25,597 nt of DNA, from the IMG/VR virus record IMGVR_UViG_3300035208_001055, positions 120,494 through 146,090 of that record, one strand, 5' to 3'. Source of the stretch: a virus. Its lineage: Duplodnaviria; Heunggongvirae; Uroviricota; Caudoviricetes. Under the pieces are notes generated by a model that made no database searches, was not told where the DNA came from, and saw nothing but the letters and a program-made list of their open reading frames with translations. The translations under genes were made by a program, and so were the position numbers. Positions 2,146 to 20,370 of this stretch are shown in pieces. Position 1 is the first letter of the stretch, and the number at the start of each line of letters is the position of its first letter.

Positions 2146-3586
2146 CGACTGTCTCCAAGTCTCGGGTCTTCATGTTCACAACCATGTCAACCAAGTAGTT
2201 CTGAATGTCACGAGTATTGTCACCGGCCCCCGTCACATGATGAACACATTCCTCCAATGCGGTCTTCAACAGGTACTTGTTATTACCTGAAGCGATGTCC
2301 TCACGTAAGTAAACTGTCCCATCCTCGTAGTAACCCATGCAGTCCGTCTCGCCATTTGTAATATCACGATAGCAGGCGACTTTTGGCTTTGACTTTCCTT
2401 GAGTCATTCCCAATGAAGCAATCCACTCCCAGACCATTACAACAGACTGTTCGGCGCACAATGATGCACTGCACGGCTCACGTCCCTTTGACTCGGCGGC
2501 GCTTAACACGGTCGTAGCTGTTGGGATACCGAATCGTTCAGCAGCACGTACCCACGTCGATGACTGAATTGTCTTCGGCATATAACCCTTGCGTTGAACC
2601 AACTCGACCTGATGTGCCGTCGATTCACACATAACCGAAGTCCCGGCGACCGCCTCCCACGCCCGCTTGAATGCGTCCTTTTGTTCCTGCTTTGGCGTCT
2701 CCCACGAGGGACAAAGATAGTGGTCGTCCAACCCTGCCTCAAACGTCTTTTCCATCTCAGTCAAGCTGCGAAGGATCGGTACGAGTTCATCAGTCGTCGC
2801 CTTGCGTAACAACTGAGCGCACCCGGCTCGGATCGCATACTCACTGCTGTTTCGGCATTCGTCAATCTGAAGTTCGTCTGTCTGAAAGTTGTAGTCGTAA
2901 ACCGATGGTGTCGGGTACTCTTGCAACTCTCGGACAAAGACACCGGCGCGGTATATCATTGCGCTTCCATTCGCACTCCGATTTGCCTTCGGAAGAAATC
3001 GTCTCTTCACGTCACCGGGCGTGTCGGAAAAATGAAGAAAACGCTTGGACAACTCGGCAAGATATTTCTCCACCTCATCATTTATTCCAACGTACACGCG
3101 GGTGTATCCATCCTTTGCCCGCACCTCGGCGTCGGGAACCTTTCGCACGGCGAGTCGGCCTTCTCGGATCGCGGCCTCAAACTGCCCGCACTCCTCACGC
3201 AACGTTCGATCAATAGCATTGCTAACAAACTCACGCAGTGCCATCCCAAGTCGAGTCCAGTCAATGGCCCCGAAGTCCAACACCCAGCCGAGATCAACCT
3301 TCTTCGTACTCGTCCCGCCAAACTGCACGTAGACTTGCTTCACTGTCTTTGTCGTAAGGCCATCATTCACTTGCGCCTCGCGGGTAAGGAAGTCCAACTT
3401 CGTCTTCCCACAATAAACCGTAACCGGCAAGCCAGCGCGCAACAACACATTGATAGCGTGCTTGGTGCCCGAGCCAAATTGTCCGATCACACCTTCCACA
3501 CCACAGCCACGAGTGGTACTGACGCCAAGAAGTGTGAAGCCTTCAACTGGTGATACACCTGGATTTTGAATCAGTAGAAGCGACAT
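2135..3586 (-). CDS. GHKL (HATPase_c) ATPase with permuted motif order and C-terminal zincin-like EExxH motif
   Basis: QNPGV (G1-like), IGQFGSGTK (G2), LREFVSNAID (N-box) and TALEECVHHVTG near the C-terminus. Confidence 0.8.
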   Translation of the reverse strand: MSLLLIQNPGVSPVEGFTLLGVSTTRGCGVEGVIGQFGSGTKHAINVLLRAGLPVTVYCGKTKLDFLTREAQVNDGLTTKTVKQVYVQFGGTSTKKVDLGWVLDFGAIDWTRLGMALREFVSNAIDRTLREECGQFEAAIREGRLAVRKVPDAEVRAKDGYTRVYVGINDEVEKYLAELSKRFLHFSDTPGDVKRRFLPKANRSANGSAMIYRAGVFVRELQEYPTPSVYDYNFQTDELQIDECRNSSEYAIRAGCAQLLRKATTDELVPILRSLTEMEKTFEAGLDDHYLCPSWETPKQEQKDAFKRAWEAVAGTSVMCESTAHQVELVQRKGYMPKTIQSSTWVRAAERFGIPTATTVLSAAESKGREPCSASLCAEQSVVMVWEWIASLGMTQGKSKPKVACYRDITNGETDCMGYYEDGTVYLREDIASGNNKYLLKTALEECVHHVTGAGDNTRDIQNYLVDMVVNMKTRDLETVDGR

Positions 3587-3595
3587 CAGTTTCTC

Positions 3596-3799
3596 CTAGC
3601 AATAGATATGGTTACTATTTCCATCGTGTGGTTCACCGAATGGCGGCTCCACTTCCCCCTGTTGCAATTCGCGGTGCGTCCATCTTCCCTCACGGTAGCC
3701 GCAATCACACCGCCACTCACTCACACCGTCGTAGTGATCTGGGTTATCAATGCTGTATTCAACAGCCGACATCTGCTTACCGCACCGTGGACAGGTCAT
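3596..3799 (-). CDS. Zn-ribbon small protein
   Basis: Start moved to MTCPRCGKQM (GGAG SD, ATGA overlap with upstream stop); CPRC...WRCDCG. Confidence 0.7.
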   Translation of the reverse strand: MTCPRCGKQMSAVEYSIDNPDHYDGVSEWRCDCGYREGRWTHRELQQGEVEPPFGEPHDGNSNHIYC

Positions 3800-4032
3800 G
3801 GTTGTTTCTCCTGAAATCCCATCGCAATCAACTGAACCTCTGTATGCGGCCAACACGGTCCACACTGGGGAAACTGTTTCTCATGGGCACGGGCGCACTC
3901 AGCGCAGGGATGCTCCCAGAATCCATTGTCATCCAAGTGACCGGTGCCGAACGTGAGAAAGTCATGGATGCCCGTGCTCACATGGCACGTGTGTCCTTCG
4001 GGACGTACAAACGGTTTAATCTCGTCGATCAT
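3796..4032 (-). CDS. Hypothetical Cys/His-rich protein
   Basis: ORF fits the operon tiling; HTCH, CAEC and CGPCWPH motifs. Confidence 0.65.
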   Translation of the reverse strand: MIDEIKPFVRPEGHTCHVSTGIHDFLTFGTGHLDDNGFWEHPCAECARAHEKQFPQCGPCWPHTEVQLIAMGFQEKQP

Positions 4033-4210
4033 ACTCTGCTTCCTCTCGGGCTAACTCTAAAAATGCCTCTCGCTCATTTCCATCAATGTCAACACGCCAC
4101 ATCGACATGAGCCGACAGTCACAGTTGATCCCCAGGGCTTTAGACGCCGCCATAACACCGATCCTGGCCCGGCCAAAGTCGTCGTGTACCTCACTCGGGC
4201 GAATCATCAT
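4016..4210 (-). CDS. Hypothetical protein
   Basis: Fills the gap between SprT and the next gene; start chosen by GAGGA SD spacing. Confidence 0.55.
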   Translation of the reverse strand: MMIRPSEVHDDFGRARIGVMAASKALGINCDCRLMSMWRVDIDGNEREAFLELAREEAEYDRRD

Positions 4211-4802
4211 CGTCGTCATCCTCGTCAGGTATCTCAGCCTTCATCTTCTCGCCGCACGGACAAGTAGGCACACCAACCTCAATCCATTTCTTGGTGGTAC
4301 GAACTTGATACTCACACTTGGGGCACTTTATCAAAATCATTCGTGTCCCTTGTTTCTTCGGGCCGCTACTATGTACCAAACGTGCGTGCGGATACGGTCC
4401 CAACTCTTCAATCAACTTCGTTAGTTTTACCTTCAGAGCCTCACCCGCCGTGGTCGCGGTCATTGGTCCTTCTAGGCCCATTGCTTTTGCCACTATCGTA
4501 AAGGGTTTTCGATGCCCGTTCTTCACGCCGACCGCCACATGGCAAAGTTCATGCACCTCCACCGCCGCGACTTCCAATGCGTCAGAAATCATTGGCGACA
4601 CAAACGTCTCATAATGCTGATCTTCACTCCGGTCGTCTGCCCATGCCTCTCCGATGCTTCGTTTCTTTGAGGCAAGTGCGCCCCTCGACGGAAATCCGCA
4701 TGACGCTCGTATTTTTCCGGGCAGTGGAAAATCAACAGCCTGAAAACTATCTCGGAGTTTCTGGGTCAACTCAGTGAGCCATGCTTCGCGTGTCTCGATC
4801 AT
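4191..4802 (-). CDS. SprT-like zinc metalloprotease with C-terminal Zn ribbon and acidic tail
   Basis: REAWL...IRASCGFP...VHELCH...GHRKPF...GLEGPMTAT...LGPYPHARL...CPKC...CPC. Confidence 0.85.
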   Translation of the reverse strand: MIETREAWLTELTQKLRDSFQAVDFPLPGKIRASCGFPSRGALASKKRSIGEAWADDRSEDQHYETFVSPMISDALEVAAVEVHELCHVAVGVKNGHRKPFTIVAKAMGLEGPMTATTAGEALKVKLTKLIEELGPYPHARLVHSSGPKKQGTRMILIKCPKCEYQVRTTKKWIEVGVPTCPCGEKMKAEIPDEDDDDDDSPE

Positions 4803-4942
4803 TTATCACCTCGCCATAGTTTCAACAAGACCGGATGAAGACAAAAGAAACCATCCCGTTGGAAACTCTTGCCAAAGTAACCATTCACTCCAAGATACCA
4901 GACAAGACCGGCAACGGCAGCAATCCAGAATACCCGACTCAT
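4799..4942 (-). CDS. Small membrane protein (47 aa)
   Basis: Manual: MSRVFWIAAVAGLVWYLGVNGYFGKSFQRDGFFCLHPVLLKLWRGDK; GGGAG SD; stop overlaps the SprT ATG (ATGA). Confidence 0.65.
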   Translation of the reverse strand: MSRVFWIAAVAGLVWYLGVNGYFGKSFQRDGFFCLHPVLLKLWRGDK

Positions 4943-4961
4943 GTGTTCTCCCATATCGTAA

Positions 4962-5621
4962 TCATACACCACAAACGGGAAAAGTCAAGCGGGGTTCAAA
5001 AATTCCGGTGCCATTCTCCATCGCGGCAGTGTTACGACCATGATAATCTGAGAAACCATTATAAACCGTCCATCGACCGAGCCAGTCATAAAGGTCCAGC
5101 ACCTCCAACGGGTAAGAAAGAAGCGAGACGCTATCCTCAAGCCACCCCGGACTAAGACAAACGCCAATCGCAACAATCCTATCCCACGGCAAGCGAGTTA
5201 ATCCACATATTTTTGACGTGTGTTTCCAACCAGACACTTCTCTACGTTCAAATGGGTTCACTCGTCGGTGGCAGTATCCCCCAGACCCCTCGCCCCACCG
5301 CAGACACTCTGGTATCGGATACCGCCAAATAAAGTTGCCGTCGCCACGGAAGTGAATGAAATTCGCCCATGTTCCCTCGTCGAACTCCAATCTGTCCCAG
5401 CCTTTCAAGTCTTCGTCGGCCAAATCCGAGTGATAATCAACGTTGATAACAGTGTCTAACTCCGCCGCTCTCGCATTGATGTCCTTAACCAAATGATGAT
5501 GGTGTAAGGCCACCGTAATTGGAAGCCTGAGCGCAAATACCTTTTTGAAGAAGTTCACCACTGGCTTCGGTTTCGACGACGCCCGCCAGTAGTCCAAATC
5601 CACCGAAAGATACGCTTTCAT
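4962..5621 (-). CDS. UPF0489-like / arginase-deacetylase-fold metal-dependent hydrolase
   Basis: LSVDLDYW, HHHHL, VINVDYHSDL and a late CLSP motif. Confidence 0.65.
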   Translation of the reverse strand: MKAYLSVDLDYWRASSKPKPVVNFFKKVFALRLPITVALHHHHLVKDINARAAELDTVINVDYHSDLADEDLKGWDRLEFDEGTWANFIHFRGDGNFIWRYPIPECLRWGEGSGGYCHRRVNPFERREVSGWKHTSKICGLTRLPWDRIVAIGVCLSPGWLEDSVSLLSYPLEVLDLYDWLGRWTVYNGFSDYHGRNTAAMENGTGIFEPRLTFPVCGV

Positions 5622-5654
5622 TACGTAGTGAACCTTTCGTTCTCAGTGAATCTA

Positions 5655-6980
5655 CTAAGTTTTCCAGTACAGAGACAGTGCCTTGCGTGTACAGCGCTCT
5701 TGAAACTGGGCACCTGTTTCCCCGGCTCCATACAAGATCGTATCGTGCCACACACCGGGCCACTCTTTTAAGATTCGCTCGCAAAGAAGTTGACGACCTT
5801 CCTGTGACAACTCTTTCATTTCAAGGATGCGGTCAATGCGACCTGGACGGGTTGAGACATCGCCGTCAGGAATACCGAGTGCTGAGTCGAGTTTTTCAAG
5901 ACAATTCGTTGTGACGATAAGTAGCACACCATCCGCCCGTTCCACGCCGTCAAGACAATTCAGCAAGCAGTCAAACGATAGGTGCCCACCGGCTGTGTTC
6001 TCTCGTCCATTGAACACGTTATCAATGTCCTCGATCAACGCAATACATGGTACGTTGGCGAGCATATTCTTCCACGCTGCTTGCATTTCATTGTTGTAGA
6101 GCGTAGAAAGATTGTAGACGAAAATTGGCAAGTCGAAATCCTCGGCGACAGCACGGATAGTCGCCGTCTTTCCGGTTCCTGGTTTTCCGTGTAAAAGCCA
6201 ACTACGTCTCCACGGGATACCACGATCTTTGTACCAGTCTTCACTTGTCTTCCAGCGGCGAACTTCTTCCACCATCATCAACGCATCGGAATCGAGTGCG
6301 AGGTATGAAAGCGCGTTGCCATGATTGATGCGGCCTTCACCTAGATCACGTTCGTGCCAACGAAGCAATCGGTGTTGTGAGTGCAACTCACGAGACGAAC
6401 TACCACCGCCACACGCAGCTAACGTTGCTTCGCTGTCATTATTCGTGCTTGCTGGTTTTCCAGCAGTGCCGAAAATATGTCTGATGAAATAACGTGGATT
6501 CGCGGCCGTGTCGATTGTCGTGTGAAATTGGTTGTAGCTATCAGCCGATTCCTGAACCAGTTGGTCAATATCAAAAGTTCCACGGAAAAACGTCAACTGC
6601 ACACCTGTTTGTATGCAAGTGTCCGTTGTTCGTAGCTGCGCTTCTTCCTTATTCGATATGCGTGAAATCCAAATTGGACGCCACCCGTACCAGTAAAGTT
6701 TTGTCGTATTTCCAATCACTTCCATCGGAACGACTTGTCGGCGTTTTACCGGACGAACATACTCCCACCAACCAATATAACAACGAAGACCGAGGGGCGA
6801 AGTCTTGAAACTATGCCAAAAATGAAATGTCACGGCGTCCGAAAGAGAGCCGCGAACTTCACTCGATACGATGGCAAAACTAGCAATGGATTGCCAGAAA
6901 CCCTTTACATAACCCCAAAAAGCACCAAGAAAACCTGTAGCCGCAGCGCCACCAGCAACAATCCAGGCCCAGTCACTCAT
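5655..6980 (-). CDS. BCS1-like AAA+ ATPase with N-terminal transmembrane anchor
   Basis: Walker A LLHGKPGTGKT, Walker B LIEDID, LLNCLDGV, sensor-1 TTN, RPGRID Arg finger; WYKDRGIPWRR; hydrophobic N-terminus. Confidence 0.9.
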   Translation of the reverse strand: MSDWAWIVAGGAAATGFLGAFWGYVKGFWQSIASFAIVSSEVRGSLSDAVTFHFWHSFKTSPLGLRCYIGWWEYVRPVKRRQVVPMEVIGNTTKLYWYGWRPIWISRISNKEEAQLRTTDTCIQTGVQLTFFRGTFDIDQLVQESADSYNQFHTTIDTAANPRYFIRHIFGTAGKPASTNNDSEATLAACGGGSSSRELHSQHRLLRWHERDLGEGRINHGNALSYLALDSDALMMVEEVRRWKTSEDWYKDRGIPWRRSWLLHGKPGTGKTATIRAVAEDFDLPIFVYNLSTLYNNEMQAAWKNMLANVPCIALIEDIDNVFNGRENTAGGHLSFDCLLNCLDGVERADGVLLIVTTNCLEKLDSALGIPDGDVSTRPGRIDRILEMKELSQEGRQLLCERILKEWPGVWHDTILYGAGETGAQFQERCTRKALSLYWKT

Positions 6981-7353
6981 GGTTTTTCTCCTTGGATTCC
7001 GGTTTCTCTTTTTTCTTGTGCCACGGCGGCAATGCTAACGCCATCTCAGCGCAATACAATGCAAACTTCCTACTATAGTCAACGTGACCAGTGGCAGGAA
7101 TTTCGGCTCTCTCAATGTCCGCCAGCGTCACGAGATCAAGACCACGCTTCAATCGTTCAGCATTCACGGCGTCGAGCATGACGCCACGTTCATAGAGCAT
7201 CCACTCTAACGAGTCGCCAATCCAAACCATCTTTGTCGGACGCAGCACTTGGGCTGCTGCTAAAATCTTCAAAAATTCAGTGGCGAGACCGGGTAGAGCG
7301 AGCGCGGCTGCGGTTGTTGCAACAATTTCGAGCATTATTCCTCCGTTGACCAC
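6973..7353 (-). CDS. Hypothetical protein, hydrophobic N-terminus
   Basis: ORF tiles between the cyclophilin and AAA genes; exact start uncertain. Confidence 0.65.
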
Positions 7354-7757
7354 TCATTGATCGTGACTTTTTCTATCACGTCACCCTGCACGATGGAACG
7401 AACAACATCCATTCCCTCGATCACCTGTCCAAAAACAGAGTGTTTTCCATCTAGCCACGGACAGGCAACGTGTGTAATGAAAAATTGCGAGCTATTTGTA
7501 TTAGGACCCGCATTCGCCATCGACAAAGTACCCGGACCATAGTGCCGAAGCGTCGAGTGAAATTCATCCTCGAACATGTAACCAACATCGCCAGCGCCAG
7601 TTTGAGCCATGAAATTCGGGATCACACGATGGAACGGTTTTCCATCGTAAAAGCCAGTCCGCGCCAATCTCACAAAGTTCTTCACAGTCTTCGGTGCTCG
7701 CTCCGAAAGATAGGCGTAAATAAGACCGCGATTAGTACGGATTGTCACTGTCTTCAT
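7335..7757 (-). CDS. Cyclophilin-type peptidyl-prolyl cis-trans isomerase
   Basis: APKTVKNF...[17 protein letters not shown]...[19 protein letters not shown]...[15 protein letters not shown]; start moved to MKTVT (TGATG coupling). Confidence 0.95.
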
Positions 7758-8650
7758 CAAATGTCCTCCACAATCTCGTCCCACTTTTCAGAAACAGAAG
7801 TCAACTGGTCACGAGCAAGTTGCTGTTGTTCGACAGCCACGTCCCATGCTGCCATGTTCATCAGTCTCCGAAGATGATCGCTAATCAACCCGACAATTGT
7901 ACTCGGTTCCAGGGCGTCCAATTCCCAACTCTCGTCGCCGTACAACTCGCGGTAAGACTCATAGCGAGCGTCCGTCGCCTTCGCAAAATTAGGCGGCGGT
8001 TGATACTTGTCGATTTGAGATTTCAAGAGTGCGATCCGGTTAATCTCAACCGACGAGCCGAATAAGGAAAGACGGTCCTGAATATCGCGCGTCATGTCAA
8101 TGCCGCTGGGGTCGTGATCGCCAAGATGCAGGATCACGGTGTGTTTCCCGCACTTCTCCCGCTCAAGAAAACGTTGAGCCGCTGCCCACATCTCACTCTG
8201 ACTCGTGTAACCACGACACGCAAAGTAAGGCACGTCCATCTCGGCACAGACGCCTTCGATCACGCCAACAAGAGCGTCCTTCTCAATCCAGCACTCTACA
8301 TAGCAATCTTGTGTGTCCCACAAGTTGTGCCGAAATTGCTGGGCACACGCCCGCACAATATCACCAGGAGAATCCCAATGTGCATTCTCACGCATGTTAC
8401 GTGTGCGATCTTCAATCGCAAGCCAGTCGATCATACCGGCCAAACGGCCGTCATTGACAATGCTGCCAATGTTTTTGTACGACTGTTGCGTATTCGGAAC
8501 CAAGTCACGGCTGACAAACTGGTAATACAGTTGCCGCAAGGTCAACTTGTACCCCTGTTGCCAGTATTCCGTGATAATCTTGTTCGCTTGGTCGATGACG
8601 GCCAGCGAGTCGCTGCGAAAACGCTTCTTCACGTAACATCGTTTAGGCAT
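7757..8650 (-). CDS. TopoVI-A/Spo11/Mini-A-like protein (winged helix with Tyr + TOPRIM domain)
   Basis: LTLRQLYYQ (candidate catalytic Tyr), [10 protein letters not shown] (TOPRIM Glu), [15 protein letters not shown] (DxD), RIAL, WELDAL; start moved to MPKR with GGAG SD. Confidence 0.8.
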
Positions 8651-8660
8651 CTCAACACTC

Positions 8661-8915
8661 CTAGTCAACAAGTTCCAACAGAACACGAGCCGACATATTC
8701 GACTCCCAGAAAATCTCACGCACCTTGCAAGGTCCAAACGATGTGGAGACCGTATCGTTCAGCCGAAATTCTCGCCCGCGAACATCGGGTCGATCCGTCC
8801 GACCTTTCACTCGAAAGATGTAACGAATTTCCTGTCGCACTCTCTCCACACGTTCCTCCCGATCTTTCCTCGGTTGACGGGCATCACGCGGTCGCTTCGA
8901 TTGCTTGTCTGACAT
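8661..8915 (-). CDS. Basic hypothetical protein
   Basis: Start moved to MSDKQ (GGAG SD); Arg-rich N-terminus. Confidence 0.65.
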   Translation of the reverse strand: MSDKQSKRPRDARQPRKDREERVERVRQEIRYIFRVKGRTDRPDVRGREFRLNDTVSTSFGPCKVREIFWESNMSARVLLELVD

Positions 8916-8928
8916 CACTACTGCTCCA

Positions 8929-8963
8929 AAAAAGGGTACAAACAGACTCAAAAAGGGTACAAA
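8929..8963. repeat. 14-bp direct repeat AAAAAGGGTACAAA x2, 21-bp period
   Basis: Copies at 8929-8942 and 8950-8963, filling the intergenic gap. Confidence 0.85.
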
Positions 8964-8964
8964 G

Positions 8965-9606
8965 TCACGTCGTTAGCTTGAAAAAGGCGTCCCAACACTG
9001 GGTTCTCACCAGTGTATAACCATGCGGCTCCATGATCCAGCGAAGTCGCGCCAAAACTTCAGCGTCCTCCCGGTACTCCACAGAGATACGGTTGATGATA
9101 CGATTCGGAAATCGAAAGTATTCTTCGAGAACAGGCACTTCAGCGCCTTCAATATCGAGACTCAAGTAGTCGATCTGAGGTGGAGTAGTCTCTTCAAGAA
9201 TCTCCTGAAGAGTCTTAACAGGGACATAGATGCTAGTGACACCCAGACGTGCGGCCTCATCCTGCCAAGCTGGCGGGAGATAAACTGATAGCCCGCCCCA
9301 CATCCCATTCCGAGTGAACCGCCATTTCTCCCCCAGCCAATTAGACTGTGGCGCTACAGCGCCATTCCATGCCGCGCACCCCGGTCGATTCTTCGCAACT
9401 TGTTCAAATAGACATGGATCAGCTTCGACAAGAAGCCCCTTCCAACCAAAATATCTCTCCAAAGTCAATGTATTGCTATGTTGGACACCATCAAAAGCGC
9501 CAATTTCAACAAAGAAACCGTCTCGCGCACCCTGCGAATCTTCAACTACCCACCGATCTTGTTGCGTTGCGGGTTGTGAGTAGTAGATAATGTCGTCAGT
9601 CGTCAT
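8965..9606 (-). CDS. FkbM family (Methyltransf_21) SAM-dependent methyltransferase
   Basis: YSQ...QD, FFVEIGAFDG...SNTLTLE...WKGLLVEADP, IDYLSLDIEGAE; start moved to MTTDD (ATGA overlap). Confidence 0.9.
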   Translation of the reverse strand: MTTDDIIYYSQPATQQDRWVVEDSQGARDGFFVEIGAFDGVQHSNTLTLERYFGWKGLLVEADPCLFEQVAKNRPGCAAWNGAVAPQSNWLGEKWRFTRNGMWGGLSVYLPPAWQDEAARLGVTSIYVPVKTLQEILEETTPPQIDYLSLDIEGAEVPVLEEYFRFPNRIINRISVEYREDAEVLARLRWIMEPHGYTLVRTQCWDAFFKLTT

Positions 9607-10394
9607 ACGCCAACCTCCTGCAAAACCGGGCACGTAGGAATAACTCGTGGCGTGAGTTGTCCCAAGTAGCTGTCACCAAGGTATCGTTTAATGAGACGGT
9701 GAACGGTGCCTTTCGTCCAAGCGAATCCTCGACGGGTCACATAGCCTCGCTTGTTTAAGTGTTCGGTGATTTCTTGAAGCGTGCAACCCGAGTCTCGAAG
9801 TTCCCGTATCCACGGAATAATCGGCTCGTACCGTCTCATCATTGCGTCCTTGACATTCTTGTGAGCGATTTCTCGACCATGTTGGCAGCCCTGTCGGCGA
9901 CGTTCAGTACGTAGGAACATCCCATCTTTCGTCATTCCGTCCCAGTGGCCAGGACGAGCGGAACCAAGTGGAATGCCTTGAGCCTTCAATTCCGCTAATG
10001 CCTCCTTCGTTCGCTTCGAGATCAATCGGGCCTCTTCCTCGGCGACAGCAGCAAGAACATGAATCGTGATTCGATTGGCCGTAGGAACATCACACGCAAC
10101 AAACTCCAACCCGCTCTCCATCAACGTCGAAACAAAAGCGACATTACGAGCCAACCGATCAAGTTTGGCAATCACGAGAACAGCCCCCGCCGCATTCGCG
10201 TGCGCTATCGCTTTTTGCAACTCGGGCCGCTTCTTAGCCGACTTACCGGTTTCCGTCTCCGCATACTCTCCAATCACCTCTCCCGGTTTCCGAGTCGTGT
10301 AATCAGCAATCGCTCTGTGCTGAGCATCAAGACCGAGGCCGGACTCTTCTTGTTTTCGCGTAGAAACTCGGTAATAGTGGACATACTTTGTCAT
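9603..10394 (-). CDS. Serine recombinase (resolvase/invertase catalytic domain + C-terminal DNA-binding domain)
   Basis: YYRVST (catalytic Ser), GLGLDAQ, RPELQKA, AKLDRLARN, EARLISKRTKEAL. Confidence 0.92.
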   Translation of the reverse strand: MTKYVHYYRVSTRKQEESGLGLDAQHRAIADYTTRKPGEVIGEYAETETGKSAKKRPELQKAIAHANAAGAVLVIAKLDRLARNVAFVSTLMESGLEFVACDVPTANRITIHVLAAVAEEEARLISKRTKEALAELKAQGIPLGSARPGHWDGMTKDGMFLRTERRRQGCQHGREIAHKNVKDAMMRRYEPIIPWIRELRDSGCTLQEITEHLNKRGYVTRRGFAWTKGTVHRLIKRYLGDSYLGQLTPRVIPTCPVLQEVGV

Positions 10395-10839: not shown

Positions 10840-10854
10840 CCCGTCACTTACCTG

Positions 10855-11630: not shown

Positions 11631-11632
11631 GA

Positions 11633-12153: not shown

Positions 12154-12174
12154 AATCAAATCCTCTCGACCAAA

Positions 12175-12756
12175 TCAAAGATGTGCTGAGTTCATGGCGT
12201 CAGCTTTGTTTTTCAAATCTCGACGCGCTGCTACCCGTCGTTCTCGCTCTATCGCCGCCCGAGTCTGAATCCGTTTTTTCTCCGCGATGAATTGGTCTCG
12301 TATCGCCGTCAACGCTTCGTCACTCAAGTTGCAGAACCAAGAGGAGCTAACGGGAAAGACGTAAGAGTAATTGCCGTTGTTGTCAATGTAGCATGTGTCG
12401 GGTGAAACCCCGATTTCGATACCGTCAATGCACAAGGTTGCGACGACTTCAGAATGTGTCCCCAGATCGGCACCGAATATGTAACTGGTGCCTCGCGGGT
12501 CGCGGAAACTGATCGACAGGCGATTATTATGATCCTTCGGTTCCGGCGTCTTTGGATTCGCCAGCGACAACAGGCGGCGTCGAGTCGATTCCCACGGCTC
12601 ATTCGCAACACCGTGTCCGTTGTCTCGTCCATCGAGAATCTGGTTTATCAATTGACAAAGTGAAGCAACAGCTTGATCGCTCCCCCGCCAGTACGCCGGA
12701 TGAGCGAATGGTGTGCCATCTAACTCAACATCGTCAGCCGGTTTGTCCGTCGCCAT
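12175..12756 (-). CDS. Hypothetical protein
   Basis: Start moved to MATDK; C-terminal coiled-coil-like basic helix. Confidence 0.65.
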   Translation of the reverse strand: MATDKPADDVELDGTPFAHPAYWRGSDQAVASLCQLINQILDGRDNGHGVANEPWESTRRRLLSLANPKTPEPKDHNNRLSISFRDPRGTSYIFGADLGTHSEVVATLCIDGIEIGVSPDTCYIDNNGNYSYVFPVSSSWFCNLSDEALTAIRDQFIAEKKRIQTRAAIERERRVAARRDLKNKADAMNSAHL

Positions 12757-13087: not shown

Positions 13088-13088
13088 A

Positions 13089-13463
13089 TCAACGTGGCTG
13101 CGCTTGTGGCGCTGTCCCTCCGAGAAGTTGTAGGTTCGTAAGCATCGTTGCAAACTGGGAAAGTCGCACGGCGTGTTTGTCAATCAACTCATTCCGAGTA
13201 AATTCGTTCCCGACCAACTCTTCCGACTTGCTAACAATCTCCTCAGTGAGGTCTGTGAGCCACTGATTGTAGACCTTATTCAGTGTCTCGGCCGCTTCTC
13301 GGCAAGACCGGGCGAGAAACGGATTCGCCTTCTGCCACTGTGCAGCCGCGCTCGGTTGTGAGTCAGTTGTTCCAGTTACGTGCCGATGTATAGACCGTAT
13401 TAACTCAAGCTGCTGCGTCTGCAATGTCAAGAAGTTCTGTGCCAATTGTTCAAAGGATGCCAT
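13089..13463 (-). CDS. Helical hypothetical protein resembling a conserved Planctomycete protein
   Basis: WQKANPFLARSCREAAETL...GNEFTRNELIDK; resemblance recalled, not searched. Confidence 0.65.
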   Translation of the reverse strand: MASFEQLAQNFLTLQTQQLELIRSIHRHVTGTTDSQPSAAAQWQKANPFLARSCREAAETLNKVYNQWLTDLTEEIVSKSEELVGNEFTRNELIDKHAVRLSQFATMLTNLQLLGGTAPQAQPR

Positions 13464-13477
13464 TCTAATCGTCCTCG

Positions 13478-13756
13478 CTAATTGAAATCACTAGGATCGA
13501 CAGCGTGCATGTGCTCACACGTGCATTCGTCGTTCAAATTAAACAATGCTCGACGGACAGAACCTTCATGTTGTCCCCAAATCGGGCCAACTACGCAACC
13601 TGTCTCAAGACACTCTGCAAAGACGCAGGGTACTTCCTTTCCAAAGTCGCCAACTTCCTCGGTGTAAATGATCTTCGCAAGCGGCTTCTTTGGAGTGCTC
13701 TCTACGTCCCCGAACAAATAGTCCATCATCTCCTCGGCCGTCATGTCGTCGTTCAT
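13478..13756 (-). CDS. Acidic Cys-containing hypothetical protein
   Basis: Start moved to MNDD (GGAGG SD). Confidence 0.7.
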   Translation of the reverse strand: MNDDMTAEEMMDYLFGDVESTPKKPLAKIIYTEEVGDFGKEVPCVFAECLETGCVVGPIWGQHEGSVRRALFNLNDECTCEHMHAVDPSDFN

Positions 13757-13760
13757 GCTA

Positions 13761-13958
13761 CTACCTCCGAGCAATTTCCGTGCCATCATCCTCAACATAC
13801 TCGTGCTCTTTGCACCACTCGCAGAGTTCGTCGATCACTTCCAACGCGATCTCACCGAGACTCACTGCGGCAAGAGACAACAAGGCAAGCGTTATCCAAA
13901 CCGGACAGCCACACAGCCACAAGCGCCACCGCCACGGGTTCTTGAGTTGGAATTTCAT
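13761..13958 (-). CDS. Small membrane protein
   Basis: Start moved to MKFQL (ATGA overlap, GGAGG SD); hydrophobic segment VWITLALLSLAAVSL. Confidence 0.65.
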   Translation of the reverse strand: MKFQLKNPWRWRLWLCGCPVWITLALLSLAAVSLGEIALEVIDELCEWCKEHEYVEDDGTEIARR

Positions 13959-14302
13959 ACGGCCTCCCTCTCTTGGGTGTTCACTTTTGGCAACGCCACG
14001 TTGCCGTCTGTTGCATCGTTTACACGCGGTTCCAGACCGAGTTCCACCAGCAGCCTCACCAACACGTCCCCGTGGCACGCCAGGGGCTTGCAGTGGCACC
14101 CCAGACGCTTGCCAACGAGTTGCGGCAGAGCGGCCAGGAGTTCAGGCGACTGCCGCACATGCGCCTCGTACAACGCAATAGCCTTCTCACGAGTGATCCT
14201 CTGGTATGGGTCGATGTGGTGCGGATTGCCCCAGATTGAGCCTCGACCGATGTAAACATCGAATCCACCAGGGTCACGAACATTTACGACGATTGTTTCC
14301 AC
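13955..14302 (-). CDS. DUF4326 domain protein
   Basis: DVYIGRGSIWGNP...REKAIALYE...LVGKRLGCHCKPLACHGDVL. Confidence 0.9.
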   Translation of the reverse strand: METIVVNVRDPGGFDVYIGRGSIWGNPHHIDPYQRITREKAIALYEAHVRQSPELLAALPQLVGKRLGCHCKPLACHGDVLVRLLVELGLEPRVNDATDGNVALPKVNTQEREAV

Positions 14303-14711
14303 GTCCCCTCCCGAGTTCCCGCTTGATCTTCCGCTTCAACTCCTTGAAAATGAGGCCAGAGACCAAACACAACATCTCCTCAAAGTCACGTTTGAGCCAA
14401 CGGGATTTATTGTCATACTTCCGCAGGTAGTCGGCTATCGACCACGCCATGTGAATTGACTCGTGCAGCAACGTCTCATCCCGAAGAAAATCTTCAGAAA
14501 ATAAAACACAGCCGAGCCACTGTGTATTTTTCTGTGGTTTATAGGCTATCACGCAGGCTTTAGACTGGCCCTTACTGTTACCTCTGAAGTTCCCTAATTT
14601 CAAACGATATAACTCGCCACGACGTTGCTGTCGATGATTCTTAAAGACAACAACGTCCCACCGAAAATTCTCGCCAGACCGGCCCAATCCGATGTTAAAC
14701 TTTATTGCCAC
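14274..14711 (-). CDS. Zincin-like metallopeptidase (HExxH) #1 of tandem trio
   Basis: LLHESIH ... FEEMLC (third-ligand Glu candidate). Confidence 0.7.
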   Translation of the reverse strand: MAIKFNIGLGRSGENFRWDVVVFKNHRQQRRGELYRLKLGNFRGNSKGQSKACVIAYKPQKNTQWLGCVLFSEDFLRDETLLHESIHMAWSIADYLRKYDNKSRWLKRDFEEMLCLVSGLIFKELKRKIKRELGRGRGNNRRKCS

Positions 14712-14722
14712 GATGTTACCCG

Positions 14723-15136
14723 TCAGTCATTTTGATATTTCTCGTGAAAATCATCTCTAAACTTCCGAGCCAACGAATAGGCACGTCGTTCCACGTTTCG
14801 GTGCCCAGGAGACTTCTTATCGCGGTACTGTTCGTAGTGACAAAACTCGTGCATTATTGTGACAATAAATTCATCGAGTCGTTGTTGAAACGTGAGTCCG
14901 CGAAACTTCTTGTGAAAATGTTGAACAAGAATGATGCAATGAACCGGAACAAAATAACCTACCTGATCGTCGTGTCCATTCCACAGTACGCTTCCGGGTT
15001 GTTCCTTTGTCACAAAAATAAGGAGATTATGTTTGATCTTCTGGGTGTCACGTAACCATTTGCCAACAGCAATCGCAAATCCGTGGTATGTCGGATCGAC
15101 GCCGGGCTGAAACCGTGCTTCGACAACCTTTCTCAC
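14723..15136 (-). CDS. Zincin-like metallopeptidase (HExxH) #2 of tandem trio
   Basis: GYF...TIMHEFCHYEQ...VERRAY. Confidence 0.7.
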   Translation of the reverse strand: MRKVVEARFQPGVDPTYHGFAIAVGKWLRDTQKIKHNLLIFVTKEQPGSVLWNGHDDQVGYFVPVHCIILVQHFHKKFRGLTFQQRLDEFIVTIMHEFCHYEQYRDKKSPGHRNVERRAYSLARKFRDDFHEKYQND

Positions 15137-15158
15137 CTCGTGAATCTCTCCGACTTCA

Positions 15159-15545
15159 TCATGTTAGACCCCTACAATAGAAGATCAACTCCTGCAAAGT
15201 TTTACCGACAGCCCACGCCAGCATCTCCTCGTCCTTTGACTTTCGTATCCGTTTCACGTAGTGGACGGCCGCGTGAGTTGCCTCGTGTGCCAGTATTTCG
15301 TAGTCAATGTGTTCCATCGAAAGCAAAATATACCCGAGAAAAGGATCGGTTGAACGCTTCCCTTTGTCAAATCGTTCAATCTGACGGGGCATCACAATAG
15401 CAGCAAAATCACACCGCTCTTTCCCTTCTGAGCGGCGTTTATAGCCATTGTACATCTTCAGGTGTGATGGATACACTATCACTTTATAGTAGCGATATTG
15501 CTTACCACGGACACCGCCTGGATACACACGAAAAGACACTGCCAT
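15159..15545 (-). CDS. Zincin-like metallopeptidase (HExxH) #3 of tandem trio
   Basis: ILAHEATH...DEEMLAW; aligns with #1. Confidence 0.7.
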   Translation of the reverse strand: MAVSFRVYPGGVRGKQYRYYKVIVYPSHLKMYNGYKRRSEGKERCDFAAIVMPRQIERFDKGKRSTDPFLGYILLSMEHIDYEILAHEATHAAVHYVKRIRKSKDEEMLAWAVGKTLQELIFYCRGLT

Positions 15546-16132
15546 TAACGTGCTCTCTCCTGCGCCCGTTCCCGATGAACTGCCTCAAGGCGATTGAACT
15601 TCTTGACCACCCCGCCGAACCCGAGTCCCCACCAGTCAACGACCGGCCACGTCCAACTCATAGGCGCACCGTCCGGCCGGTGACTCCCGTATTCCAACAC
15701 GCGGAAGTCATGCCACGCACCGGGGCGCAACTTAGCGGAGAGAAAACTCCGCACGTACTTGGAGGCCGTGGACAGCCAGATTGTCTTCGGTATCTCGAAA
15801 TGCCGGGCCACGGCTGAATCTAATTCCAACTCGTAGCTACTGGCGATATATCGCTCACCGTTCGACCGTGTTGGAGTGTAGGTCGCCGTCTTTATCACGG
15901 TCTCTTCCGTGTTGCCCGTGAACCGTGCCTCGAAGTGCGGGCCAAGATTGAAGTCTCGCTTCCCCTCGGGAACCATGTAGACCAACACGTAGTTCCCGTA
16001 GTTTGGATCACCCTGCCGGGTGACGAGCCGCAATGTCGGCCGGGTCATGGCGCTCTCGGGCGTCCCGTACTTCAACTCAATGTGGTTGCACCGGTCAAAC
16101 AACTCGTTCTGTGTCTCTTCGATCTGTCCCAC
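15545..16132 (-). CDS. Hypothetical protein
   Basis: 195-aa ORF, GTG start with GAGGTG SD, stop coupled to the next start. Confidence 0.7.
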   Translation of the reverse strand: MGQIEETQNELFDRCNHIELKYGTPESAMTRPTLRLVTRQGDPNYGNYVLVYMVPEGKRDFNLGPHFEARFTGNTEETVIKTATYTPTRSNGERYIASSYELELDSAVARHFEIPKTIWLSTASKYVRSFLSAKLRPGAWHDFRVLEYGSHRPDGAPMSWTWPVVDWWGLGFGGVVKKFNRLEAVHRERAQERAR

Positions 16133-16146
16133 GGTTCACCTCTCAA

Positions 16147-16356
16147 TCAACATCTTTGGCTGTGTGTTCGCACTGTTGAACGCGAAGGTCCCACCGGCTC
16201 CAAACCGAAGGTCTTGGCGATCTTGTTTCCGACCTCTATCTCGTCCTGTATCAGGTATCCCCTGCCGAAAAAGCACATCAGGAACCTATGGATCGTTCTC
16301 GCCTCATCCTCACTGAGGATCATAATAGGCGAGCCATCTATGTCGGTGCTGGGCAT
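16147..16356 (-). CDS. Hypothetical protein
   Basis: Start moved to MPSTD (AGGAG SD). Confidence 0.6.
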   Translation of the reverse strand: MPSTDIDGSPIMILSEDEARTIHRFLMCFFGRGYLIQDEIEVGNKIAKTFGLEPVGPSRSTVRTHSQRC

Positions 16357-16364
16357 GTCGGCTC

Positions 16365-16550
16365 CTATTGTATTTCCTTGTTGATCTTGCGTATCAAAAA
16401 GGTGACTGCTTCCATGTTCCACTCGTCGGGTGTCCCTTCCAGCAGAAACACCTCCATGATCTCCTCTCGCATCCACTGTGGTAGTGTCTCAGCGTGCCGG
16501 TGCCACATCAGTTGCAACTTCGTCATCGCCTGTTGTCGTTTCGACATCAT
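16365..16550 (-). CDS. Hypothetical protein
   Basis: GGAG SD, helical 61 aa. Confidence 0.65.
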   Translation of the reverse strand: MMSKRQQAMTKLQLMWHRHAETLPQWMREEIMEVFLLEGTPDEWNMEAVTFLIRKINKEIQ

Positions 16551-16580
16551 TGGTCTCCTAACTTTCTCCCAACCTTCTCC

Positions 16581-16772
16581 TCAAATGGAAAGGATCACCA
16601 CGTGGCCGGTTTTACGTCTCATGTTCGTCCTCAATTGTACGGCGAGACATCCCACGTCGATGATCGTATTCCAATCCCCGGCGTCTACTTCAATAAACAC
16701 ATCGAGTTCCAGCAGGTCGGGGTCTGTTTTGACAGCCCGATTCAGTTTCTCTACAAAGTCGGCCAACTTCAT
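16581..16772 (-). CDS. Hypothetical protein, first gene of the leftward run
   Basis: Start moved to MKLADF (GAGGAG SD). Confidence 0.65.
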   Translation of the reverse strand: MKLADFVEKLNRAVKTDPDLLELDVFIEVDAGDWNTIIDVGCLAVQLRTNMRRKTGHVVILSI

Positions 16773-16900
16773 TGCTCTCTCCTCTGCTTTATCTCCTACC
16801 CGCGAGGTGCGGTGTATCAACATCCCACGACACAATCCCCGCAGTGTTTACCCACAGTCGCCCTCGGAACACTATCGGAATCACCCGCGAGATGCGTTGT

Positions 16901-16929
16901 ATCGTAAACGTAAGGTCCTATGCTGTCAA
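16901..16929 (-). promoter_or_regulatory. sigma70-type promoter for the leftward arm
   Basis: TTGACA (16929-16924), 17-nt spacer, TACGAT (16906-16901). Confidence 0.75.
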
Positions 16930-17255
16930 GGGTTACGGACATGATTCTATGCGTATTGTACTCTTGCGCCTCGCGGGTGCGTCACCTAACCCCAGTCAGC
17001 GAGCCAAGTTCCGTCAAAACACGTGTTCTTTCGTGTGTAACACTGGCACCCTTAACTCACGTGCCTGCTTAGTGTTACGGCCAACGGAAACTGTTTCTAT
17101 ACAAACCTGGCTTATTACCTATATTGTTTTTATTTAGCCCTATTTGATTTACTATAGGGGATAATCAGACTATGTATACAAACGCTCCCTGGGAGTCGTA
17201 AGTTCGTATGCAGTCACGTGTTAAGTGCTGCGTTTTACTCCCAGACATGACATGA

Positions 17256-18152
17256 CTAATTTACACGTCTTGACGCAACTCCTTGTGTCACAACGTCTTC
17301 AGTGGGATAAACTAGCCCCAACGCACTGAGTTTCCGATCATACAGCGCCCAGAACGCCGGGTCCCCTGTTGAGCGGTCATTTGGGTCGCGGATGGGGATG
17401 TCGTGTTCTTTCATCAACTTGCGGTCCTCGCGGGACCAGCGGAGGCGAAAGGCTTTTCGTGCGGGCGGGGCGTTTGGATAGCGGGTGCCGTTTAATAGAA
17501 CGCCCTCCCGCCCCGTGGCCCGTGTGAATTTCCCTGATTGTCCAAGTTGTGAGCGATACTCTTGGGCTTTTTTTCGGGCCTCTACCCGGTCGAAAATGTT
17601 GTCCTCTAAGATTTGCAGGATAGGTTCACGACCACTTTTGTAGATGTCGGTGAGCCATTGTTGGTATGGAGTAATTGGCTCTAGTTTCCCTTCGTGTTGT
17701 TTAATGCGGTTCCACTGTCGAAGGGCAGATCGCTTGTAGCCGTAGCCAATATAACCTATTGACTGTGTGTGGGTATCTGTTAGCTTAAAGACACATAGTG
17801 CCGGGTCATAGAGTGACCGCTTAGGAGGTTGCCTACGGGAGCTTGTGGGGCCTGTGCAGTCAATTCCAGTGGACTTTGTATCTCGGATCAACTCGTGGAC
17901 CTTCAACTTCGCCTCTTCCTCACTGAGATTCGTGTAGAGAACTTCGATGAAAGGTTCCATCTTCATTGAGATAAGAGCCTGTTGACAGACCTCTACTGGA
18001 TCGTTCCAGTCGGGTTTCTTTAGATGGAGTTTGCTGGCATTCCATCTGCGAGCATGTCGTCCCGAGAAGCAGTAGTCGATATAGTACGGGTCGTGGCTTC
18101 TACGCGGATCGAGATACCAGAACACGTCGTAGGTTTTTTGCTTTCGCGCCAT
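17256..18152 (-). CDS. Protein with two tandem, degenerate GIY-YIG-like domains
   Basis: Domain 1 YDVFWYLDPR..DPYYIDY...EVLYTNLSEEEAKLKVHELI; domain 2 CVFKLTD...IGYIGYG...QILEDNIFDRVEARKKAQEY. Confidence 0.65.
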   Translation of the reverse strand: MARKQKTYDVFWYLDPRRSHDPYYIDYCFSGRHARRWNASKLHLKKPDWNDPVEVCQQALISMKMEPFIEVLYTNLSEEEAKLKVHELIRDTKSTGIDCTGPTSSRRQPPKRSLYDPALCVFKLTDTHTQSIGYIGYGYKRSALRQWNRIKQHEGKLEPITPYQQWLTDIYKSGREPILQILEDNIFDRVEARKKAQEYRSQLGQSGKFTRATGREGVLLNGTRYPNAPPARKAFRLRWSREDRKLMKEHDIPIRDPNDRSTGDPAFWALYDRKLSALGLVYPTEDVVTQGVASRRVN

Positions 18153-18407
18153 CGGTTGGCCTCCTATCTTATCTAACGGCAGAACCGGGGGACATTTCCA
18201 CCTAAATCTTGAAAATTCTCTGGATTTCTCCGTGACGCGGCAGAGTCCCTGGATTCGGCCAGAAATCCGCGACCGGCTCCCGTGCGCCCTGTGTTACCGA
18301 TCAAAAACGTTTACACGCAATTGACCCCGCCGTCGAGTTGGAGATCAGCGTCAGGGGAGCACCCCCACTGACGGGGGAGGCGGGATACCGTCAAGCGGGG
18401 CACAATT

Positions 18408-18431
18408 GACCCTCCCCTCCCCCGGAGGGTC
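18408..18431. repeat. GC-rich inverted repeat at the compositional boundary
   Basis: GACCCTCC-8nt-GGAGGGTC; CAATTGACCC direct repeat at 18318 and 18403. Confidence 0.7.
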
Positions 18432-18641
18432 GGCCGGAGGGTTGCCACCCCCTTATAAGCCCATTTATTCGCTATAATCAGCACATTTTGCATTAGTTGC
18501 GCTTGCATTGTTGCCCAACAATGGGGCGCAACCCGCTAGGCGCGTGGATAGAGGGCGGGGCAGGGGGCAGCATAGGGGCTATGACGTAAGGTGTTATGGT
18601 TGTAGCAGTTACGACGACTGCCTACTTTATAGGCATTGTGC

Positions 18642-19197
18642 GACTGCCAAATTGGCAGTCTCAAGCGGCGACCGGAAAATCGTTAAAAATGGCGCAACCG
18701 CGCGCGTCGTTTCGGGTAGCCAGTAGAGGGGATTAGTCACTAATCTAGTGAACATTGCTTACGTCATACATTCGCTACATAAGTCATTACCCGCGAGGTA
18801 CTTAGAACTATAACCATTGCCATAACCATCATAGATTACAGCCCTATCATGCCATAGTTTAGTCATTTAGTAATCATTAGTTTTGCTTATGCTATCCCGA
18901 CACAAGATAAGGGACGATGATACACACGGACTATTCGTTACTGCCTACTTATTGAGCATGACCCTAAAGGTAGGGATAGGCAGCATAGACCTAACTACTA
19001 GCATAGTCAGTAGTTACGCTCTATTGCATACTGCCTACTTATTGAGCATATCCGTTAGCACTAGCAAGGGAGGGAGGGCGATAGTAGACTGCCATAATGG
19101 CAGTTAGAAACACCCCTCTATCTGTAGGGTAGACTGCCATAATGGCAGTCGATAAGCGTTAAACTGCCATTATGGCAGTCGTAACCTGATAGAGGGG
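18642..19197. repeat. Array of 19-bp palindromes GACTGCCA-N3-TGGCAGTC (4 copies) with nested inverted and direct repeats
   Basis: Copies at 18642-18660, 19087-19105, 19132-19150 and 19162-19180; CCCCTCTATC/GATAGAGGGG inverted repeat encloses copies 3-4; TACTGCCTACTTATTGAGCAT at 18939 and 19029. Confidence 0.9.
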
Positions 19198-19361
19198 CTT
19201 CTATTTTCGGTTCGCCTTGCGGGGCAAGTAGAGGGCAGGGTATTCTAGGCCGATTGCCACCTTAGAACGCAAGGGGCGCAAAGCTAGACCTATCGTGATT
19301 ATCGGGGTTGTAGCGATTAGGTAAGTTAGGCAAGATGCGCCTATTGATAGCCTACCATTTG

Positions 19362-19485
19362 CTTGCACAATACCATTTCGGGTGGTATCGTGCAAGAGCG
19401 GGGTGCATATCGGACCACGGGCAGGGCGCGCAATGGGAAGCGCAAAGGGAACCACCCGCTAGTGTGGATACACTAACGGGTGGTT
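19362..19485 (-). ncRNA. Candidate structured RNA segment: two long hairpins
   Basis: 14-bp stem (19362-19396) and 16-bp stem (19450-19485); each has one internal pair that is C-A on plus but G-U on minus. Confidence 0.4.
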
Positions 19486-19555
19486 AAGGGAGGGGCAATC
19501 CCTACTGAATGAATTGTGCTGATTGTAGCGATTGTGCCGATTAGTTAGGCTTGGA

Positions 19556-19753
19556 TTAGGCTTGCAATCCACGGGCCGTCATTTCCCCTAGAATCGCTAC
19601 AATCGTCGTGGCCATTGTGGGCCATACAAACCGCAATGTCCGCAAGTCTATCCCAAACGACATACCCCCATTTAAGCGCTCTTCCATGCGCTTCCAGACT
19701 TGTCGGTACAATCGGCATAACTGGCCATCCGTCAATCTTGACAGACTCGGCAT
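19556..19753 (-). CDS. Hypothetical protein (65 aa), lone leftward gene in the CAG-depleted region
   Basis: MPSLSRLTDGQLCRLYRQVW...; GGAGGT SD; own promoter upstream. Confidence 0.7.
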   Translation of the reverse strand: MPSLSRLTDGQLCRLYRQVWKRMEERLNGGMSFGIDLRTLRFVWPTMATTIVAILGEMTARGLQA

Positions 19754-19797
19754 AATCGTTACCTCCGTTGTTGTCGTTGCAATCGCATTGTTCGTCA

Positions 19798-19991
19798 CCA
19801 CCCCGCCCGTGGTCAATTCCGGGCGGGGTGGGCAGGGATGTACTATCCCCGTGGTATTCCAGAACATACCCACCTATCGGCCATTATCCGATGGCGTGTT
19901 TTCCATGCGCCTATTAGTGGATATGCCCGGTTTCCTCTTGACCCCTCTTGTATCGTTGCCCCGCCCCCTACTGACACAATAGGGGGCGGGG
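19798..19991. repeat. Two perfect 12-bp GC-rich inverted repeats in the leader of the leftward transcript
   Basis: CCACCCCGCCCG-10nt-CGGGCGGGGTGG (19798-19831); CCCCGCCCCCTA-9nt-TAGGGGGCGGGG (19959-19991). Confidence 0.85.
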
Positions 19992-20065
19992 GCTTTTCAC
20001 TAGGGCAGGGGTGCTACCTCTTCGCCAACTAGGCGGGGGTTGCCCTCTTCTGCCCGAACTATTCA

Positions 20066-20093
20066 AGCATACCACGGATTTGGGCGGGGTCAA
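20066..20093 (-). promoter_or_regulatory. sigma70-type promoter with extended -10
   Basis: TTGACC, 16-nt spacer, TGn-TATGCT. Confidence 0.6.
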
Positions 20094-20370
20094 GCAAAAT
20101 TCACGGCGCGCCGTCAGAAAGTAGAATCGGCGCGCCGGAATAATCGGAACTATGCACCACCCGCGAGGCGCAAATATACAATACACAAGAGGTTATGTCA
20201 TTTTATGGTGGAGGTTAGCGGCCGTTATCTTAGCTCTTGCTTAGGTAGGGTTGCGACGATTGTTCAAGATGCAACGATAATTAGTGTCACGCGGGTGGTT
20301 GCAGACGGAATATGCCGATTGTAGGGTTGTGGTAAACCACGCTATCCTAGAAAGATTTTGGGATTTCCAT

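Follow-up and report, generated by a model that had tools for sequence, protein, structure and literature searches.

A 13-bp word dispersed through the genome of an uncultured phage, with a tandem GIY-YIG protein as its candidate reader

Introduction

In cluster A mycobacteriophages, 13-bp stoperators are read by a monomer with two DNA-binding domains (PMC9283540). Among GIY-YIG proteins and their kin, I-TevI represses its own promoter (PMC2988022); CapR, a repressor of the Vibrio satellite PLE, probably originated in homing endonucleases linked to the GIY-YIG superfamily (PMC8096241); Eco29kI and Cfr42I recognize CCGCGG, probably without a separate DNA-binding domain, and in T4 EndoII a Glu-to-Ala substitution abolishes catalysis and allows stable binding (PMC2764454). 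Here we describe a 13-bp word that is dispersed through the genome of an uncultured tailed phage (Caudoviricetes; IMG/VR record IMGVR_UViG_3300035208_001055, hereafter G000; 146,090 bp, 51% GC), together with a 298-aa protein containing two tandem GIY-YIG domains that is a candidate for reading it. The analyzed stretch, the window, comprises 25,597 nucleotides (bases 120494–146090 of the record); coordinates are those of the window unless marked ‘genome’.

We hold the odds to be even that a homing-type GIY-YIG nuclease has here become a non-cutting, one-chain reader of a word that occurs genome-wide as promoter-bracketing pairs and lone sense copies; the literature that we searched describes no tandem inactive GIY-YIG reader system.

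A 13-bp word dispersed through the genome

An earlier note on the window had listed seven copies of a 9-mer associated with a GCGCAA tail; all seven lie where, and on the strands on which, it had placed them, and the 15-mer that it singled out is identical at 3371–3385 (−), 16964–16978 (−), and 20159–20173 (+), the first of these reading T-R-E-A-Q in frame. The genome-wide count that the note had called for yields 20 copies of the 9-mer, 10 on each strand (no strand bias), where 0.95–1.3 are expected from Markov models of orders 1–4 and 2.8 from order 5. Copies are found both within and between genes (9 of 20 are inside predicted genes of at least 159 aa). The 9-mer is real, but it is not the unit: alignment of the 20 copies gives a longer consensus of 13 bp, ACCCGCGAG-N-N-R-C, and the GCGCAA tail is not needed. 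Position 13 is C in 19 of the 20 copies and position 12 is a purine in 19; R-C is complete in 18, compared with a background of 14% (P = 5e-14). Because positions 12 and 13 played no part in selecting the copies, those in coding sequence are real sites too. The genome contains 18 perfect 13-bp copies (123 per Mb) and nine more sites with one mismatch, that is, 27 sites in all. Position 8 is A, C, or T across the sites and never G, because CCGCGG, one of 39 missing palindromic hexamers, is absent throughout G000.

The missing palindromes are a feature in their own right: 39 of the 64 palindromic 6-mers do not occur in the 146 kb (e.g., CCGCGG, 0 vs 32 expected; ATCGAT, 0 vs 54), and many are also absent from genomes G001, G002, and G004; this is extreme restriction-site avoidance.

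Synonymous shuffles rule out codon chance as the source of the coding copies, with 8 sense and 7 antisense copies in G000 and 0.77 and 0.72, respectively, in the shuffles. The site is asymmetric. ParB sites of the parS/KorB type are palindromic, and the columns that flank the word contain no conserved dyad. A CRISPR I-C repeat or hairpin is ruled out by unconserved upstream columns, and the ends of a MITE are ruled out by the target duplication not being seen by eye; an Rfam search returned hairpin matches below threshold only. In our judgment the word is very probably the binding site of a protein. The earlier note had proposed a site for a phage regulator or for a nucleoid or packaging protein, which fits, and the GIY-YIG-like protein that it had named for testing, described below, is the best candidate reader.

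A dispersed, position-flexible word that occurs in coding DNA and on both strands is also what would be expected of a host signal mimicked by the phage (Chi-like, uptake-sequence-like, or a nucleoid-protein site). Planctomycetota is probably the host phylum of the large uncultured phage group to which G000 belongs, as suggested by a TadE-like gene that points toward this phylum (a homolog search gave mixed taxa, with Pirellulaceae at 2 of 37 loci). Among 301 Planctomycetota genomes, none has more than about 13 copies per Mb and the counts follow those of a reversed-pattern control, that is, there is no enrichment, although this evidence is indirect, the host itself being inferred. The distant relatives also lack the word, and we consider mimicry of a host signal very improbable; for the Chi-like signal that the earlier note had entertained, the absence of strand bias and the 11 specified bases are contrary as well.

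Conservation of the word in relatives

The seven non-coding sites are all kept wherever relatives (contigs at 76–92% nucleotide identity to G000) cover them. In these copies 118 of 120 fixed bases are unchanged, compared with 467 of 550 in the flanks (85%; P = 6e-6); the changes are at the two N positions, R, and position 8, with the R position changed in 4 of 12 cases, three of them A/G exchanges.

The coding copies are less fixed (111 of 120 bases vs 479 of 559 in flanks; P = 0.05), and for the two that the earlier note had suggested examining the outcome is divided. The perfect site at 12488–12500 (−), sense within a gene of ~200 aa, is kept in L188, L190, and L191, the last having G in place of A at R; in L188 there is an additional variant site 87 bp upstream. 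The perfect site at 3373–3385 (−; the 9-mer begins at 3377), sense and in frame in a 483-aa gene (T-R-E-A-Q), is lost in L138 (84% nucleotide identity), the sole relative available there, where T-R-E becomes T-K-D. (A Pfam search with this 483-aa gene, which had been labeled GHKL, gave no match.) Elsewhere, the site at genome 28916 is lost in L139 through third-position changes and kept in L184, and two lineages retain a facing pair at genome 62542/62748, differing only at N, at R, and immediately outside the site. Selection therefore acts on the word, which is fixed in the control region and moves about within genes.

A candidate reader for the word

The gene at 17256–18152 (−), between site clusters and at the center of their densest grouping, encodes the 298-aa protein, which is an internal duplication; in structure models both halves fold as GIY-YIG domains. 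Domain 1 (pLDDT 89.7) matches PD-T4-3 with Z 9.2 and I-TevI with Z 7.6 (rmsd 3.1, 87 aligned residues); domain 2 matches PD-T4-3 with Z 9.8 and I-TevI with Z 8.8 (rmsd 2.4, 85 aligned). Sequence searches of Pfam, PHROGs, and the PDB all missed the protein. The position of the catalytic, metal-binding Glu is occupied by V, A, or T in all six aligned domains, and in the same alignment two control GIY-YIG proteins, P0107 and an ORF on contig L098, have E; the Tyr and Arg positions are partly kept in both folds. No Pfam match to a separate C-terminal DNA-binding module (NUMOD, HTH) was obtained, and residues 238–278 are modeled with low confidence. Because the distant homolog P0105 lacks the last 60 residues, reading would have to fall to the two GIY-YIG domains.

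Homologs are few. A search of 1.8 billion representative and 5.8 billion clustered proteins identified two close ones (79% identity), both encoded in loci that keep the site cluster, and a single distant one, P0105 (33% identity), with which a further protein search gave no match. No homolog was found in ten distant phages, in IMG/VR, or in 401 Planctomycetota genomes (a search without a positive control). The word is similarly restricted: the ten distant phages (polymerases 47–63% identical) contain 0–1 copies each, with no enrichment; a scan of IMG/VR with the 15-mer gave 54 single matches, a chance-like result; scans for facing pairs gave 0 and 8 matches, the eight being GC-rich contigs with one or two perfect copies and no homolog of the protein; and five of six metagenome pattern matches are without similarity to G000.

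P0105 is encoded by contig L193 (3.1 kb, 36% GC), which contains three perfect copies of the word, including the exact 15-mer, where 0.0004 are expected. The copies lie 0.7–1.1 kb past the end of the P0105 gene; the first two form a facing pair with a 92-bp separation and TTGATA between them, and each reverse copy precedes a start codon by 20–30 bp. P0105 is the only clear homolog of a G000 gene on this contig, and the genes downstream differ from those in G000. This co-occurrence, which shows co-inheritance of gene and word but not binding, is the strongest evidence for the reader; on balance, we lean toward the 298-aa protein as the protein that reads the word.

The same protein could instead be an active, atypical nickase that has the word as its target, introducing programmed nicks or breaks (T5-type single-strand interruptions, or recombination/amplification of the SegB type). 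SegB does act on its own phage's genome (PMC13096335), there are two GIY-YIG folds in which Tyr and Arg are partly kept, and facing sites would place nicks on both strands. The metal-binding Glu is, however, missing in all six domains, and it would be costly for selection to preserve 18 cut sites, some of which are in core genes. The nicks known from virion DNA are confined to one strand, whereas the sites in G000 are divided 10:10 between strands. We regard a nickase as improbable.

Three observations concern the surroundings of these genes. A close relative has, at a place where G000 lacks one, an inserted GIY-YIG gene that looks intact and retains the Glu (L098:4466–5070). On L193, the P0105 gene is directly followed by a 68-bp inverted repeat (82%; L193:1467–1681), which flanks an AT-rich 10-bp tandem repeat. 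Finally, in L188 and L190 the ~62–74 bp that immediately precede the GIY-YIG-like gene, and also a stretch in L189, match genome 62168–62240, an intergenic segment after an NT5C-like gene; this is a short repeat common to two distant places, for which the window position (17675–17750) is only approximate.

Layout of the sites and promoters

Over the 27 sites, 16 are sense and 11 antisense with respect to transcription; the antisense sites are mostly partners in facing pairs, and many sites lie deep within coding sequence. Four adjacent pairs face each other at spacings of 64–206 bp (P about 0.01 given the positions, within 250 bp), and the variant pair 20159/20296 is a fifth. The sites with no neighbor within 1.6 kb are all sense (7 of 7; permutation P = 0.013).

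In the window, a sigma70-type leftward promoter (promoters of this type are identified by consensus match only) is located at 16901–16929 (−; TTGACA-17-TACGAT) between two facing perfect sites. The sense site at 16966–16978 (−) ends 37 bp upstream of the −35, and the site at 16883–16895 (+) covers the predicted start (about +1 to +12), where the earlier note had put it. Both are kept in L188, L190, and L193; the pair spans 96 bp in G000 and 118, 96, and 92 bp, respectively, in these relatives, and the −35 is kept in L188 and L190 and has one change in L193. A further perfect site, 16798–16810 (+), is antisense to the left operon, 26 bp before its first start codon (16772), and adjoins the ribosome-binding sequence; L188 and L190 retain it, each with a single change, and the layout of a reverse site before a ribosome-binding sequence also occurs twice in L193. 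The helical phasing of indels (+22, −11, and +23 bp) is no more than suggestive.

On the other side of the gene for the candidate reader, a one-mismatch site at 18531–18543 (+; G to T at position 7), upstream of that gene, is identical in L188 and L190 and unrecognizable in L193; a perfect site at 18789–18801 (+), in a non-coding block, is kept in L190, broken at the R position in L188, and degenerate at the L193 edge. The perfect site at 20159–20171 (+), in which position 8 is changed from A to C in L190, faces the one-mismatch site at 20284–20296 (−; A to T at position 8), which is identical in L190 and includes the near copy (20288–20296) that the earlier note had described as facing it. 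This pair sits between divergent sigma70-type promoters: a leftward promoter with an extended −10 at 20066–20093 (−; TTGACC-16-TATGCT), both hexamers of which are kept in L190 and the −35 of which is 66 bp from the 20159 site, and the rightward promoter of the right-arm genes at 20371–20398 (+; TTGACA-16-TAGATT), the −35 of which is 75 bp from the 20284–20296 site. Between 18789 and 20066, a hairpin at 19451–19484 is a perfect inverted repeat in L190. The 8-mer that the earlier note had seen in it does form both arms, but these (19454/19484) lack R-C and are at best degenerate copies or half-sites, so their membership is doubtful.

This layout suggests a mechanism. A former endonuclease would have duplicated its domain and then lost the metal-binding Glu in both copies, so that one chain with two unequal domains could act as a pseudo-dimer on an asymmetric site; the protein would most likely be an operator-binding repressor. 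The leftward promoter would be bracketed, upstream by a sense copy and at the start site by an antisense one; another antisense copy precedes the first ribosome-binding site, and the divergent promoters have a second facing pair between them. Facing sites might be joined by looping. The scattered coding copies, mostly oriented with transcription when alone, could serve as secondary roadblock or sink sites. Taken one by one, the steps of this mechanism each have a precedent in the papers cited in the Introduction. The full model, in which the words are operators for a disarmed-nuclease repressor, is one that we favor tentatively and put a little below even.

Several observations weigh against it. 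Most strong sigma70-type promoters of G000 have no site within 300 bp; the facing pair at genome 62542/62748 is wholly within coding sequence with no promoter in view; and the −10 of the bracketed promoter is good in G000 and L190 only, while the sites are kept in all four loci. With perfect sites alone, 5 of 6 lone sites are sense. The active sites of GIY-YIG proteins vary, so that a Glu missing from an alignment need not mean lost activity. The link between gene and motif rests on one distant contig and is confounded, because L193 is syntenic and the non-coding block upstream is conserved there too; since L193 is only 3.1 kb long, further shared genes may exist. Finally, the ten distant phages that lack both are mutually related and four are less than 75% complete, so together they are worth about one independent absence.

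Alternatively, the motif might be an activator box or promoter element, comparable to the T4 MotA box and read by another factor, such as one of the two sigma-like proteins or a ParB-like protein. A TANNNT hexamer follows the motif by 4–5 bp in 7 of the 27 sites (P = 5e-7), and one of these hexamers becomes TATAGT in relatives; G000 encodes sigma region 4 and ParB domains, and one facing pair is just downstream of the sigma-like gene at genome 62819. Yet the hexamer at 16978 becomes TGCATT and AACAGT in relatives while the motif stays, and the one at 16883 is the reverse complement of the real leftward −10. Nearly half of the sites oppose genes, as do 4 of the 7 with a hexamer. The ParB and 62819 sigma-like genes have diverged homologs in the distant phages that lack the motif, although their specificity could have drifted. 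A promoter box thus fails where relatives could test it, is weakened by them, and in our view is unlikely.

A different use of the same site, probably by the same reader, would be in DNA handling, with the protein marking or organizing the genome in replication, packaging, or staged injection. On this view the cluster would belong to an origin or end region, and scattered copies would act as secondary loading points. The cluster adjoins 2.2 kb of non-coding sequence, the conservation of which extends even to L193, GC skew changes sign there, and an arm poor in CAG/CTG begins; clusters of perfect sites are fairly evenly spaced, typically ~10–17 kb apart (CV 0.41, P = 0.017); coding copies are able to move; and the sites outlast the promoter −10 in L188 and L193. 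However, the even spacing, of roughly 15 kb, is only suggestive and vanishes when one-mismatch sites are included (P = 0.27), GC skew tracks gene direction, and the copies are not tandem iterons; those beside ribosome-binding sites or start sites in G000 and L193 look expression-linked, and complete distant relatives with the same polymerase and terminase have neither motif nor gene. We consider a role in DNA handling possible but doubtful.

The facing (inverted) orientation of the pairs, with a resolvase-family gene at 9603–10394, would suit accessory or crossover sites of this serine recombinase, as the earlier note had also suggested. Homologs of the recombinase (47–48% identical) are nevertheless present in G001 and G002, in each of which the motif occurs a single time; no relative examined has the DNA between paired sites inverted; the site itself lacks a dyad, being asymmetric, and a target duplication was not seen; and the nearest motif copy is about 2 kb from the gene. 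We find this explanation scarcely credible, and return to the operator model in the comparison that closes this report.

Other features of the genome and its relatives

A nucleotide search of GenBank phages with G000 gave no close match. The encoded proteins include a family A polymerase, a gpA-type terminase, a P22-type coat protein, two ParB-like proteins, two DNA methylases, and two sigma-like proteins (genome 33568–34113 and 62819–63493).

Non-coding DNA at 18150–18900, which precedes the GIY-YIG-like gene and contains an ACTGCC...GGCAG palindrome, is conserved in L188, L190, and L193; it is a possible origin, packaging, or injection signal. A strand-biased word occupies the arm formed by window 18500–25597 and genome 1–15400: GGGCAGGG is found 17 times on the + strand and never on the − strand genome-wide, and GGGNAGGG is distributed 18:2 in this arm, which is also poor in CAG/CTG (7–16 per kb vs 25). 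Six copies of the GGGCAGGG/GGGNAGGG word form a tandem repeat at the start of the record; the sequence of the word fits the FtsK KOPS consensus.

A second dispersed word, GTGTAAACG, has seven copies in G000 (18308–18316 and six others) and eight in G002; L193 retains the window copy apart from one change. An intergenic block, ATTTTATGGGACAAA, followed by a second conserved stretch before a ribosome-binding site, is common to window 1185–1290, upstream of a 204-aa gene, and genome 83303–83466, in the divergent spacer between ParB and primase genes; it is a candidate phage-specific promoter.

Some distant phages carry their own, different motifs. G002 (L106–L111) and G003 (L119–L122) have bipartite motifs, mostly in one orientation, with 11 and 6 copies, that look like phage-specific promoters; no counterpart was found at the matching genes of G000. 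In G001, positions 84560–85070 (L103:4560–5070) contain seven copies of a 36-bp repeat, mostly every 63–66 bp with unique spacers, in a CRISPR-like array, and a lone copy of this repeat is at 116430. By eye, a 203-aa gene at 4191–4802 of the window looks SprT-like; both G001 and G002 have homologs of it.

Comparison with described systems

If the operator model is true, G000 would have a genome-wide control or organizing system based on a nuclease fold. This would be a clear example of domestication, in which a GIY-YIG nuclease became a sequence-specific regulator via duplication and loss of the catalytic Glu, and would open a first view of gene control in a large group of uncultured phages whose hosts are probably Planctomycetota. 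Although private, dispersed phage words are a frequent observation, their readers are rarely identifiable; here, a small gene, a consensus with natural variants, and a two-site layout make the proposal testable.

The stoperators (L5 gp71, TipsytheTRex repressor; PMC9283540) are similar in number and form: more than 20 asymmetric 13-mers genome-wide with a two-domain reader, and in G000 18–27 sites with a candidate for one. They differ in that stoperators follow transcription and are located in promoters and short intergenic spaces, whereas in G000 nearly half of the sites oppose it, mostly in facing pairs, and many are deep in coding sequence; also, the stoperator reader combines an HTH with a Stoperator domain, and the candidate here is a GIY-YIG protein. 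The word in G000 thus resembles a dispersed operator or stoperator network but does not form a stoperator system, from which it departs in orientation, in location, and in the fold of the candidate reader.

With T4 EndoII, Eco29kI, and Cfr42I (PMC2764454), the likeness is that reading is probably accomplished by the nuclease fold and that CCGCGG is one base off the core of the motif; those enzymes are active, oligomeric nucleases directed against host or foreign DNA. Given the weak structural match to Eco29kI (Z 3.5), the shared CCGC is a lead only.

I-TevI (PMC2988022) is a GIY-YIG family protein that occupies a promoter operator near its own gene and represses without efficient cutting. It is, however, an active homing endonuclease with separate C-terminal binding modules and one operator; in G000 both domains are GIY-YIG, both lack the Glu, and the site is genome-wide. 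As judged from the alignment, then, the word and protein of G000 are not an active homing endonuclease and its target, the Glu being absent. CapR (PMC8096241) is likewise a repressor of probable homing-endonuclease descent; its likeness is to the cysteine-dependent DNA-binding region at the N-terminus of those endonucleases, and its target is a single promoter in another phage, whereas G000 retains the nuclease fold in duplicate and carries the sites itself.

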